A DNA stretch of 63,830 nt, from IMG/VR virus record IMGVR_UViG_3300026382_000008. The stretch is one strand, 5' to 3'. Both the position numbers and the translations under genes were made by a program. Shown here piece after piece: positions 44,768 to 63,811 of this stretch; positions within the stretch are counted from its first letter, which is position 1, and each line of letters starts with the position of its first letter. This DNA comes from an uncultured virus (IMG/VR IMGVR_UViG_3300026382_000008) (taxonomy: Duplodnaviria; Heunggongvirae; Uroviricota; Caudoviricetes). The notes under the pieces were generated by a model. That model made no database searches. It was not told the DNA's origin and saw only the letters and a program-made list of their open reading frames with translations.

Positions 44768-47131
44768 TTAGATCTTTCCAAGTAAAATTTTTTCAAAGTC
44801 ACTTTCTTGTGGTGTAATATCATCAGGGAAGAGTAAACCAGTTTCAATAGCTTTACCTATGTTTTGGAATGCCAAAGCAAGTAAAGGTGAAGTATAAAAT
44901 GGAACTTGACTTATTCCTAATATGGTATATTCTGAATCGTTAGATAACCTGTAAGGTAAGTAAAGATTCTTCTTAGATCTAACCATATTTGATAATACGA
45001 TCTCAAAATGAATAAGTTTTCTTCCTGTTGATTTATAATGTCTGAAGATTTCAATCAATGTTTTTGATATATCACAATCTTTACAAAGCCTTCTTTCAAA
45101 CAGTTTATTAACAATCTGCAATGTTGATGCCATACCGGATGACATTAGTTCAATTTCAGCTATTATTTGATTTGGAACATCATATTTCAAAACAACCTTA
45201 TCTTCATCAGATTTGAGATCAATAAAGTTGATAAATGTTAATGCATAACTTGGATCTTGAATATCTATTTCGTAATATGTACCATCATTGAATGTTACTA
45301 ACGCCAATCCCTCTTTAAGCAATACTCTATCTTCATAAACATTATAATTAGCTGAATCTTTCTCAATACGAATTGTACATGGTTTGTGAATAATAATATT
45401 CATCTTTTGTTGACTAATATTAGGTGAATTATCATCTATGATTTGAGGAATTCCTGATGTTTCTGCAAGACCACCAGTATGGAAAGTTTTCATTATTAAC
45501 TGAGTTCCACGTTCACCAACAATTTGAGCAGATTGTATTCCAATATCATCTGACGTGAGCAATTTATGTAATTCACCGTAACATGTTAAACATATCTTGG
45601 GTGTTTTACAGAAAACTGGTGATCTAAGCTTTACAGTTTTACCAATAAATGATTTATAATTTTCATCCGTTACCAAAGTTCCATCATGTAGGTAGCGTCC
45701 TATTATAGCTTTAGCCCAATCTTCGTCTTCAATTGGTATTTCTAGATAACGATTAGTACCACAATCTTTTGTCTTGAAATCTATCTTAATATTTGCTGCG
45801 GCTTTAACCAATCTTCTTGTTAGGTAACCACCTTCAGCTGTTCTAATAGATCTGTTAGCAATTCCAGCTCTTGCTGTTGGTGATATGATGAAAGCTTCAA
45901 CAGCATTCAAGTTATCTAAGAATCCTTTAGCAACAGGAACTTTAACAACTTTTCCTTCTGCGTCTTCAACATAACCTTTAACAAGAACCATTTGCATTAA
46001 GTCTGACCAAGAACCTCTAGCACCAGAATCAAATATAGCATAGATTTGAGGATAATGTTCTTTAACATATTGCTTAAGTTTTGGCATAAGCTCTTTTTCA
46101 ATGTACTTCATTCCTGTTTCTGGGTCCATATCCTTAAGTTTTTCAGCCAACTTCTTAAGATCTAAAGGAATTACCATTTCAGTAATTGGCATTGAAATAC
46201 CAAATCGTGTAACAGCATCAAATCCTAATTTACGAAGCTTATCATATGTATCAAGTATCTCATCATCTTTGAGAAACTTGTTCATATAGAAGAATAATTC
46301 TTTGATATTCTTTTTATTAAGTACCTTATCAAAGAAAGGTATTTGTGGAGGAAGAACACTGTTAACAAGAATTCTTCCCAATGTTGTTTTGATAGGCCTT
46401 TCTGATTTCGGACCTTTGTATATCATATCAAGATAAGCAAAGTTAGGATCTTCTTCGATAAACTTTATAAGAGTATCATAATCATAAGAAGATGGTCTAT
46501 AACTTAAAGTCTTTGATGGCTTACCTTCTTTTGTTAAAAGATATAAACCAAGAATCATTCCTTGTGCTAATTCGAAAAGAATTTCACCTGTAGCAATACT
46601 TCTTGTTTTTCTAAACATTTTCTCTTTAGCTTCTTTTTGAGCTTCAATAGTTAAAGGCATATAAACTGCTATTGTATCTTGGACAAAAATACCATTATCA
46701 AGCATGAATGTTTGAAAGTCTTTTACTGTAAAGTCATATGTTGTTTGAAATCCAGCTGCTCTTATGTCTATATCTTTGACAGGTATGTATGAAATCTGAT
46801 TATTCTGAGGATCATCAGATTTAACAAAGTAAAGATTGTCAGCCTTACCAGATTTCTTTAGCTCAATCAACTCTGTAGGTGAGATAGGTCTTATTTTGTT
46901 TTCATTTTTATCATAAACCAACAATGAATGATCTACTGTAGCTTTAAAACTACCAAAAGAATCGTGACTTATTTCGAAAACAGGTGTATTACCATGAACT
47001 GAGAAGTCTTCTATTTGTTTCAACTCTATCTTACCATCTTCATTTATAGCATGAATAAAAACTGGTATTACAGGAGCATAATGTCTAACGCCTGGTCTCA
47101 TATCGACTAATCTAAAAATAGAACCTCTCAT
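44768..47131 (-). CDS. rpoC: RNA polymerase beta' subunit, C-terminal part, fused behind a split-intein IntC
   Basis: TIAVYMPLTIEAQKEA (cf. QMAVHVPLS.EAQ.EA), SGARGS, RTAEGGYLTRRLV, DCGT, LRSPVFC...CLTCYG, IGIQSAQIVGERGTQLIMKTFHTGG. Confidence 0.93.
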   Translation of the reverse strand: MRGSIFRLVDMRPGVRHYAPVIPVFIHAINEDGKIELKQIEDFSVHGNTPVFEISHDSFGSFKATVDHSLLVYDKNENKIRPISPTELIELKKSGKADNLYFVKSDDPQNNQISYIPVKDIDIRAAGFQTTYDFTVKDFQTFMLDNGIFVQDTIAVYMPLTIEAQKEAKEKMFRKTRSIATGEILFELAQGMILGLYLLTKEGKPSKTLSYRPSSYDYDTLIKFIEEDPNFAYLDMIYKGPKSERPIKTTLGRILVNSVLPPQIPFFDKVLNKKNIKELFFYMNKFLKDDEILDTYDKLRKLGFDAVTRFGISMPITEMVIPLDLKKLAEKLKDMDPETGMKYIEKELMPKLKQYVKEHYPQIYAIFDSGARGSWSDLMQMVLVKGYVEDAEGKVVKVPVAKGFLDNLNAVEAFIISPTARAGIANRSIRTAEGGYLTRRLVKAAANIKIDFKTKDCGTNRYLEIPIEDEDWAKAIIGRYLHDGTLVTDENYKSFIGKTVKLRSPVFCKTPKICLTCYGELHKLLTSDDIGIQSAQIVGERGTQLIMKTFHTGGLAETSGIPQIIDDNSPNISQQKMNIIIHKPCTIRIEKDSANYNVYEDRVLLKEGLALVTFNDGTYYEIDIQDPSYALTFINFIDLKSDEDKVVLKYDVPNQIIAEIELMSSGMASTLQIVNKLFERRLCKDCDISKTLIEIFRHYKSTGRKLIHFEIVLSNMVRSKKNLYLPYRLSNDSEYTILGISQVPFYTSPLLALAFQNIGKAIETGLLFPDDITPQESDFEKILLGKI
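46676..47131 (-). mobile_element. Atypical split intein, IntC (152 aa), ending Gln-Asp with Thr at +1
   Basis: Block B KATVDHSL, block F TTYDFTVKDFQTF, block G NGIFVQD|T; block A is absent. Confidence 0.85.
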
Positions 47132-47293
47132 TTTTCAACCTCTTTGTTTAGTTTTGGTCAAATTCAGTTCATCTTTTAACACAGTGTTCATAAGAACATT
47201 AATTCTGAAGGGAGTTTCTTCTTTTGAGAAGCTAACTTATAAAAACTTTATAAGGAGTTTAAACTTCTTCAGGGTGGGTGGCAAATACAGCTT

Positions 47294-47322
47294 CTTGTGC
47301 AACTCTCTTTGGGTTGCGCAAG
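47294..47322 (-). promoter_or_regulatory. Conserved hairpin, copy 3 (CTTGCGCAAC-CCAAAGAGA-GTTGCACAAG)
   Basis: Variant of copies 1 and 2, oriented toward the beta' gene. Confidence 0.6.
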
Positions 47323-47423
47323 TCATAAAAGCTGATAATTTTGAGAGTAAGCCAGTGTATTTAGAAATCATTATGTTTGTGTATTTATAACTTTTTTTTT
47401 TGTCATTTCATGAAATTTAGGGA

Positions 47424-47452
47424 TTGGTGCCACCCAAAAAGAGTGGCACCAA
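47424..47452 (+). promoter_or_regulatory. Conserved hairpin, copy 2 (TTGGTGCCAC-CCAAAAAGA-GTGGCACCAA)
   Basis: 10-bp stem with compensatory changes relative to copy 1, 22 nt before ATG 47475. Confidence 0.7.
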
Positions 47453-47474
47453 AATACAACCAGGAGGTAAAACC

Positions 47475-63372: not shown

Positions 63373-63392
63373 AATCTCCTCCTAAATAAAAT

Positions 63393-63431
63393 GATGGATG
63401 GACTTACCTCAGAAATGGTAAGTCCATCCAT
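63393..63431. terminator. Hairpin terminator
   Basis: TGGATGGACTTACC / GGTAAGTCCATCCA. Confidence 0.7.
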
Positions 63432-63439
63432 TGAGATAA

Positions 63440-63670
63440 TTAACCAGCATCAAAAACATATCCAATATCATTAGCTTTTACTGGTGGTACTTCTTTGAAA
63501 TCTATATCAAATTCAAATTTTGGATGAAAGTCTCCATCACCATCTGCCATAAAACATACATATCTTGATTGACCAGTTTTACCAAGTGTCTCCATGGTTT
63601 TAAGCATTGAAAGAAAGTGTGGAATCCATCTTTCTTCCATCTTAACTTTGATTGTGAATTCCTTTTCCAT
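63440..63670 (-). CDS. hypothetical protein
   Basis: 76-aa ORF with SD AGGAG. Confidence 0.7.
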   Translation of the reverse strand: MEKEFTIKVKMEERWIPHFLSMLKTMETLGKTGQSRYVCFMADGDGDFHPKFEFDIDFKEVPPVKANDIGYVFDAG

Positions 63671-63678
63671 GTTAACTC

Positions 63679-63811
63679 CTATAAATCAGTTTCAATGAAA
63701 TCTTTTTCTGTTAAGTTTATGACATTTTCAATTCTTGTACTGCATTTATACCATTTATCATTCTTCTTTATAAAAAGTGTTACATTACAATCTGCAACTG
63801 AATCTCCATCG
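63679..63811 (-). CDS. rpoC: RNAP beta' micro-exon: catalytic DGD plus split-intein IntN (40 aa, Ser1)
   Basis: Reads DGD|SVADCNVTLFIKKNDKWYKCSTRIENVINLTEKDFIETDL*, a block-A-like peptide after DGD that complements the IntC lacking block A. There is no start codon, and an in-frame TGA lies at 63826-63828. Confidence 0.7.

Follow-up and report, generated by a model that had tools for sequence, protein, structure and literature searches.

Two distant genes of an uncultured phage probably encode the halves of an atypically split intein that follows the catalytic loop, DFDGD, in RNA polymerase β′

The DNA analysed here, referred to as the window, is a stretch of 63,830 bases (30% GC, with densely packed open reading frames, ORFs) from the uncultured virus record IMGVR_UViG_3300026382_000008 of IMG/VR. 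It carries two genes, each with one part of an intein, that flank the DFDGD|x junction in the β′ subunit of a multisubunit RNA polymerase (RNAP), and the catalytic residues of the intein are conserved. We read this, with a probability of about 0.8, as a naturally and atypically split intein, with a short N-terminal part (IntN) and a long C-terminal part (IntC), placed directly behind the catalytic loop, DFDGD, in the β′ subunit of a phage RNAP. The initial annotation of the window, made from its letters and a list of its ORFs, had proposed such an intein, and all that it described in the sequence is borne out below. What it overlooked is an apparent further insertion at the very end of the window.

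The longer half opens the gene for the C-terminal part of β′, which encodes a 787-aa protein. The Pfam profile Intein_splicing (PF14890) matches residues 30–150 of this protein, above its cut-off (profile positions 27–153 of 155; 37.7 bits against 35.8; E 2.3e-9). This agrees with the earlier description of a 152-aa intein stretch without block A: the block A region, roughly the first 26 profile positions, is missing, and only 29 residues precede the match. Rpb1 domains 3, 4 and 5 follow the intein match by Pfam, and β′ does resume at TIAVYMPL, with T153 directly after Gln151-Asp152 (TIAVYMPLTIEAQKEAKEKM). Intein-less relatives have QMGIYLPLTEAAQKEAKEKM or QMAATIPLTIEAQREVQEKM immediately after DFDGD. 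Host flanks are contiguous in such homologues; P0043 and P0044 read NADFDGDQMA.. without interruption at the insertion site, and exon 2 of the related locus L002 is FDGDQMGIYLPL. P0044 has a different intein further along β′, between ..MRTFH and TGGSGS, which begins with Cys1 and ends in His-Asn. When proteins were searched with the 787-aa query, 1494 of the 7994 candidates scored reached E <= 1e-10, and seven of the best 120 of these 1494 (P0036–P0042) cover at least 97% of the query, intein included. The IntC alignment was built from the window protein and P0037–P0042, P0036 being identical to the window protein and left out. Invariant in all seven aligned proteins are T65, D67, H68 and S69 of block B; T131, Y132, D133 and F134 of block F, including the F:4 Asp; and F149, V150, Q151, D152 and T153. 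The usual His-Asn ending of block G is replaced by Gln151-Asp152 in all seven.

The shorter half lies at the right-hand end of the window, on the same strand. As had been described, the DGD codons (63802–63810) are followed there by a 40-aa peptide that begins with Ser, SVADCNVTLFIKKNDKWYKCSTRIENVINLTEKDFIETDL, and then by TAG. When the 48-aa IntN frame was compared with longer proteins, one of six candidates passed: P0004, a protein of 401 aa with Rpb1 domain 2 (PF00623) whose C-terminus reads ...HMSHGYLSAFGGDFDGD|SVADCNVTLYMKKNNRWYKCDTRIEDVINLTEEDFTEACL (GGDFDGD|SVADCNV...). Judged by alignment, the same 40-aa peptide (77–78% identity to that of the window) stands right after GGDFDGD in an intact β′ N protein. 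The sole match of P0004 to the window in a tblastn search is at 63688–63810 (78% identity over 41 aa), so the resemblance of IntN is not due to chance. The window does not contain the body of the β′ N gene: none of its 59 scanned ORFs has Rpb1 domain 1 or 2. Identity to the related locus L006 begins exactly at C GAT GGA GAY (63811) and is lost upstream; together with the absence of Rpb1 domains 1 and 2, this means that the window holds no more of the N-extein than its final 10 nt, followed by IntN. Over the 43 codons of DGD and IntN, the window and L006 differ by 7.0 synonymous and 12.0 non-synonymous changes, and the ratio of non-synonymous to synonymous rates (dN/dS), 0.33 in this small sample, points to constraint on IntN. 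Of 3427 candidates in a protein search with P0004, 32 reached E <= 1e-10, and 10 of these were aligned. Six of these 10 β′ N relatives (P0004, P0005, P0006, P0009, P0011 and P0018) have Ser or Thr and a tail of 37–50 aa right after D(F/Y)DGD. Ordinary extein continues past DGD in two (P0010 and P0012), and the chain stops just past GGDF in the remaining two (P0007 and P0008). P0004 was not found in the viral contig collection, nor were the distant IntN-bearing proteins P0011 and P0018 in the genome contig collection.

Are the two pieces partners? The break falls just after block A in two separate genes, with IntN ending at a stop codon after 40 aa and IntC starting at position 27 of the Pfam profile, and Ser1 and Thr+1 are nucleophiles at positions 1 and +1. 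IntC residues 1–175 and the 48-aa IntN frame were co-folded with alignments made for this analysis, so that the following calibration counts are only rough. The co-fold reached an ipSAE of 0.86, and the best of three controls reached 0.00; the mark used for ipSAE is reached by 116 of 157 solved complexes and by 2 of 215 mismatched pairs. Contact agreement between runs was at least 79%, and the pLDDT of the partner was at least 82. In the model, IntN residues 15–19 pair with IntC residues 22–27, and the interface joins D6–F18 of IntN to D67–S69 and V150–D152 of IntC. The DGD-Ser region touches the same two IntC segments, so both splice junctions and block B meet in the model. The co-fold supports the view that IntN and IntC would bind each other and form one domain, although split-intein complexes have already been solved and the result may partly mirror likeness to known structures. 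A sequence search of solved structures gave weak intein matches only, the best being a TFIIB intein at E 0.0044, so there is no close solved relative. In P0004, IntN is fused to the N-terminal portion of its host protein, β′; in the window, ..C GAT GGA GAT stands before IntN, and upstream of that a non-coding stretch of 19 nt with a TGA. Taken as halves of one intein split near its N-terminus, the two pieces are thus supported.

The distance between the halves is 16,550 nt, taken up by six genes on the same strand and a 12.6-kb block on the opposite strand, about 15 genes altogether, and the earlier figures of about 16.5 kb and 12 kb were close to the mark. Gene order in relatives resembles that of the window. 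In L006, homologues of six ORFs of the window (76-aa, 224-aa, 78-aa, QueD-like, 378-aa and 200-aa) come after the β′ N-IntN gene and, further on, so do opposite-strand homologues of the window's 221-aa and 281-aa ORFs. In L001, which has an IntC-β′ C gene (68% identity), the genes for the N- and C-terminal parts of the β subunit are found upstream and on the other strand, just as they are in the window. No β′ N match was found in G001, the record behind L001; its IntC gene is 11.6 kb from the contig start and a partner some 16 kb upstream would lie past the contig's edge, which makes this record uninformative. P0038, an IntC-β′ C protein of 799 aa (69% identity), has the same longest-contig figure as P0004, 45597, so the two are probably on one contig. 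The place of the IntC gene in L006 is likewise deduced from contig-length figures only. No P0038 match occurs within 10 kb downstream of the P0004 gene, so the halves would be well apart in that relative too.

Table 1. Features of the split intein and its surroundings in the window (positions from the first base; aa, amino acids)
Feature	Position	Strand	Basis or remark
IntC-β′ C ORF, 787 aa	44768-47131	-	start ATG at 47131
IntC, 152 aa	46676..47131	-	Pfam, alignment, co-fold
Block B, T65..H68	46928-46939	-	in IntC
Block F Asp, D133	46733-46735	-	in IntC
Terminal residues Q151-D152	46676-46681	-	in IntC
Thr+1 (= T153)	46673-46675	-	first C-extein residue
C-extein, β′ C part TIAVYMPL...	44768..46675	-	Rpb1 domains 3-5; stop codon included
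IntN, 40 aa, SVADCNVTLF...ETDL	63682..63801	-	stop TAG 63679-63681
Ser1	63799-63801	-	first IntN residue
End of N-extein, C GAT GGA GAT (third base of Phe codon + Asp-Gly-Asp of the DFDGD magnesium loop)	63802..63811	-	DNA alignment to L006 (TTC GAT GGA GAC), tblastn
Putative 3′ end of intervening sequence (group I intron?)	63812..63830	-	19 nt, not β′ coding in any frame; body beyond window
76-aa ORF, phrog_10928	63440..63670	-	starts 8 nt after IntN; 91% identity beside the L006 β′ N-IntN gene
Five same-strand genes between the halves	60035..63372	-	224 aa, QueD-like PTPS (208 aa), PnuC-like 78 aa, 378 aa, 200 aa; syntenic in L006
Opposite-strand block, 12.6 kb	47424..60038	+	holds split β subunit genes; transcribed divergently from the IntC gene
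RNAP β N part	49655-52201	+	Pfam/PHROGs; adjacent to β C gene
RNAP β C part	52217-54265	+	Pfam/PHROGs

The intein belongs to a wider family. A phmmer search with the 152-aa IntC against 1.84 billion cluster representatives gave 60 proteins at E <= 0.001, 11 of them at E <= 1e-10, and these were sorted by Pfam (59 scanned here, P0037 taken from the protein search) and by motif context. The layout of the window protein, in which an N-terminal intein part is followed by Rpb1 domain 5 in a β′ C protein, recurs in 23 of the 60. Nine others (P0175, P0177, P0179, P0180, P0192, P0193, P0194, P0200 and P0205) are β′ N proteins of 508–537 aa that end about 130–141 residues past DFDGD; by their architecture, these seem to be the same intein family split at the conventional position in other phages. 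Five are single chains with Rpb1_2, an intein and Rpb1_5, three of them with a LAGLIDADG domain, and the remainder are fragments or have other hosts. IntC residues 24–152 are collinear with residues 152–293 of P0163, and residues 15–152 with residues 138–313 of P0198, leaving 61 and 45 residues, respectively, after DFDGD. This is room matched by IntN plus the head of IntC, and such alignments place contiguous members of this intein family at the same β′ site in single chains. The residue after D(F/Y)DGD in 23 contexts is Ser (16), Thr (5) or Cys (2), and all 11 C-junctions in distant members have Asp and then Thr (VQD|T in nine, LYD|T and IQD|T in one each). P0181 is a β′ N protein whose N-terminal intein part is fused to DUF7487 and DUF559 nuclease-like domains. 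In the window, a 453-aa ORF with a DUF559 domain (42274–43635, minus strand) has weak similarity to P0181 (E 5.6e-4), and L001 conserves this ORF (47% identity) on the downstream side of its IntC gene.

What would the two halves do? The β′ N gene would end in ...DGD and the 40-aa IntN with Ser1 at its start, and the other gene, on the same strand at a distance of 16.55 kb, would supply the 152-aa IntC, Thr+1 and the rest of β′. After translation, the intein parts would associate into one HINT domain. Ser1 would then attack the Asp-Ser bond and Thr+1 would take over the N-extein, with oxyester intermediates, and Asp152, going by the chemistry of the family, would cyclise in place of the usual Asn and free the intein. 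An O-to-N shift would leave a continuous ...GGDFDGD-TIAVYMPL... chain, with a predicted ligated junction of DFDGD-TIAVYMPLTIEAQK. The magnesium loop of RNAP is buried in the active centre. Catalysis should be blocked by an intein that stayed in this place, and this speaks for true excision. Most likely, going by the sequences, the active site would form only after the two proteins are stitched together.

Several observations weigh against this reading. The canonical His-Asn ending is absent, and Asp-ending inteins are rare. The match of the 40-aa IntN to contiguous family members by BLAST is weak (E 0.11–4), though it falls right after DFDGD, and the link between P0004 and P0038 comes down to their equal longest-contig figures. 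The body of β′ N, the N-extein, lies outside the window. The DGD-Ser frame is closed by a TGA at 63826–63828, six codons upstream of DGD, and after this TGA the DGD-IntN frame has no ATG, GTG or TTG start, making it untranslatable on its own. At the gathering score, Rfam finds nothing in the window, where just the presumed last 19 nt of an intron are visible. Finally, both association and chemistry are inferred.

What, then, precedes the DGD codons? The three frames of 63812–63830 read TEANMK.., LRRT*.. and *GEHEG, and none is like GGDF; GEHEG stands before DGD, versus GGDF in the relative. By these frames and the loss of identity to L006, the sequence directly upstream is something other than β′ coding. 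The location given earlier for the IntN piece stands. TGA recoding is ruled out: TGA ends 9 of 58 ORFs in the window (TAA ends 39 and TAG 10), so it serves as a usual stop codon. Nor does a plain frameshift, or an error of sequencing at the edge of the window, explain the bases upstream, since no frame resembles GGDF. P0007 (367 aa) and P0008 (365 aa), which are 74% and 72% identical to P0004, end in GGDFKLGVPKAS and GGDFDLGVPKAS, respectively (GGDF(K/D)LGVPKAS*). The two have diverged, yet they are cut at the same codon and share a read-through tail, LGVPKAS, and this suggests an element that is maintained; searches for the DNA of these two interrupted relatives gave nothing useful. The base before the boundary, 63812, is G, and the U of the 5′ exon can be deduced from GAT TT|C in L006. 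The G and the deduced T-ending 5′ exon would fit the splice-site rules of group I introns. The odds are about even that an intervening sequence ending at 63812 cuts off an IntN mini-exon (10 nt of extein plus IntN) from the β′ N body, and this sequence would most likely be a group I intron inside a Phe codon (TT|C). In that case, RNA splicing would precede protein splicing.

L002, a distant relative, has a comparable insertion. Its β′ N ORF runs on for 12 read-through residues past ..GYNAD; then come an endonuclease-like ORF of 260 aa and an ORF that starts M-FDGDQMGIYLPL. In the 3′ part of the insert between NAD and FDGD (7146–8126), the group I model of Rfam matches with E 4.9e-8 and 38.5 bits, short of its gathering score of 50, and a second piece of the insert has a group I match at E 0.0021. 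This insert sits 2 nt from the putative intron site of the window. Further downstream in the same β′ gene (9351–9836) is a group II intron that scores above the gathering score (RF02004, 89.4 bits; RF00029, 61.9 bits).

Could the last 19 nt be an assembly error or a chimeric join, with the true genome carrying an uninterrupted β′ N-IntN gene as in L006? The divergence lies at the very edge of the window, and contigs of the sequencing runs break at 63765–63774, where the IntN of a related strain joins; there is a loose end at 63774 in run X2. Despite this, such an artefact is unlikely: P0007 and P0008 are real relatives interrupted at exactly the same codon. It would also touch the proposed intron only and leave the split intein unaffected. 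Another possibility is decay, with DGD-IntN a dead fragment severed by an insertion that does not splice, and IntC-β′ C either non-functional or active without ligation. The in-frame TGA, the missing start codon and the replacement of GGDF by GEHEG all fit this idea, as does the fact that the window's own β′ N-IntN was not seen as a protein of at least 85 aa in the protein collection, where the one match among six candidates is a relative. Decay is nevertheless quite unlikely, given that IntN is intact with the dN/dS noted above, that IntC keeps all residues invariant in the family, that P0007 and P0008 share both truncation and tail as expected of a maintained element, and that the boundary fits group I splice sites.

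It is also conceivable that the intein parts hold the β′ halves together non-covalently, the Gln-Asp ending having abolished C-terminal cleavage. His-Asn is missing from all seven close relatives and from all 11 distant junctions, and many jumbo-phage RNAPs are said to function with unlinked β′ N and C subunits. Yet the conserved Ser1, Thr+1, block B Thr and His, and block F Asp would be needless in a mere docking module, and contiguous members with the QD|T ending inside a single-chain β′ must excise to free the buried magnesium loop. Moreover, according to a review, cyclisation at the C-terminus can also take place with Asp or Gln instead of Asn, Asp endings being a documented minority variant (PMC4031507). 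Docking without splicing is therefore very unlikely, and the split intein that ligates β′ remains the preferred reading. A fuller version of this reading is tentative, at somewhat less than even odds: two nested events of self-splicing, no more than 10 nucleotides apart, would restore the DFDGD loop, a group I intron first and then an Asp-ending, cysteine-independent split intein, and the intein family would have been split independently after ~40 aa and ~130–140 aa.

Contigs from the same sample bear on the window end. Four runs, either labelled hydrothermal vent metagenome or without a label, contain the stretch. A contig of run X2 follows the window sequence from 63774 rightwards and then has a different, homologous IntN (..SVADCNVTL then YIKRNGKFYS), which indicates a related strain with the same layout in the same sample. 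Contigs of the four runs contain no sequence past 63830. The viral contig collection gave no exact match that would extend the window, and metagenome contigs gave none to a pattern beginning with the window's own GGN, which could not have matched L006 either. Short skips at 46081–46710 proved to be 32–42-nt matches to other, more abundant organisms, and nothing was drawn from them.

Judged by its gene products, the source of the window would be a large phage, uncultured and myovirus-like, that has an RNAP of its own. Pfam and PHROGs identify a tail sheath, baseplate proteins, a RecA-like protein and the multisubunit RNAP. No near-identical deposited phage was found for the window, and the best β′ matches among deposited phages, AR9/PBS1-type jumbo phages included, have 24–30% identity. 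With the query P0001, tblastn found no record among 162 deposited phage records with coverage of at least 80%, and the 25 matches listed all begin at residue 146 or later; with P0018, the 12 of 56 matches listed all finish at or before residue 346. Among the matches listed, no deposited phage record covers the intein parts. Two long ORFs of the opposite-strand block (669 and 952 aa) were considered as the true β′ N and ruled out, having neither RNAP domains nor DFDGD. The 669-aa ORF (47424–49433, plus strand) and an open-ended ORF of 449 aa (1–1347, minus strand) have a common motif region, ..W(M/A)CL(N/T)G(I/Y)(G/A)Y(K/R)YITKD(K/T)NE.., and by this motif may be paralogues; no family match was found for either. 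The 78-aa ORF between the halves (61815–62051, minus strand) matches just the first 67 of 175 profile positions of PnuC-type nicotinamide mononucleotide transporters. Given its conservation in L006 (60% identity), it either encodes a stand-alone membrane protein of small size or is a fragment.

How does the window intein compare with known systems? AceL-TerL, GOS-TerL and VidaL are reportedly atypically split inteins of environmental phage genes, with an IntN of ~15–37 aa and a long IntC; their hosts are said to be terminase, UvsX or helicase-like proteins, and most are said to have Cys at one or both junctions and an Asn ending. By these descriptions, the window intein resembles them in its short IntN and long IntC. 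Inteins with C-terminal Asp or Gln were reportedly described by Amitai et al. in 2004, and fractured genes, in which one protein encoded by two genes is restored by trans-splicing, reportedly by Dassa et al. in 2009. Unlike the known inteins ending in Asp or Gln, which are contiguous and have other hosts, the window intein also swaps the penultimate His for Gln, and this ending is family-wide. Unlike the fractured genes and the DnaE intein, which are split conventionally with a long IntN, the window has 16.55 kb and about 15 genes between the halves; fractured genes have neighbouring halves with a free-standing endonuclease gene in the middle. The likeness to fractured genes and the cyanobacterial DnaE split intein (PMC4760082) is that there are two genes whose halves may lie far apart. 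According to Pasch et al. (2023; PMC10189870), split inteins without cysteine are very rare and the PolB16 OarG intein is the first of them with an atypical split. The window intein, like PolB16 OarG, is naturally and atypically split, has a short IntN and long IntC with Ser/Thr at positions 1 and +1 and oxyester chemistry, and comes from a metagenomic, phage-like polymerase gene (PMC10189870). Unlike it, the window intein ends in Gln-Asp and is divided into 40 and 152 aa, whereas PolB16 OarG has a PolB DNA polymerase as host and parts of 15 (IntN) and 168 aa (IntC) (PMC10189870). There is no detectable sequence relation of the window intein to the solved PolB16/OarG, and none of the 13 solved chains at E <= 1 is so named. 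Introns of group I and of group II occur in the virion RNAP β′ N genes of jumbo phages, according to a survey (PMC12350094). Self-splicing elements thus crowd the same gene region, as in L002 with its group I insert at NAD|FDGD and group II intron further on; those elements act on RNA, and the intron of the window is deduced from its last 19 nt only. Archaeal rPol A′/A″ inteins likewise lie in the largest RNAP subunit, but they are contiguous and archaeal (PMC1635734). Atypical splitting, distant halves (in conventional split inteins) and Asp endings are each already known. In the literature searched, with few subscription journals in it, we found neither an intein family at DFDGD of phage RNAP β′, nor its invariant Gln-Asp|Thr ending, nor its existence in three forms, contiguous, split conventionally and split atypically.

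What are the implications of such an intein? Short-IntN split inteins without a catalytic cysteine are sought as tools for protein ligation, and many natural variants are present here (23 of 60 representatives). The invariant Gln-Asp ending, together with the Ser1/Thr+1 pair, provides a test case for the less-studied route of Asp cyclisation. The DFDGD codons are a hot spot where introns and inteins accumulate. If the fuller version is true, the intein family would be a natural experiment in how inteins become split. If the split-intein reading is true, phage transcription would depend on protein trans-splicing, and possibly also on RNA splicing, at the most conserved motif of the enzyme.

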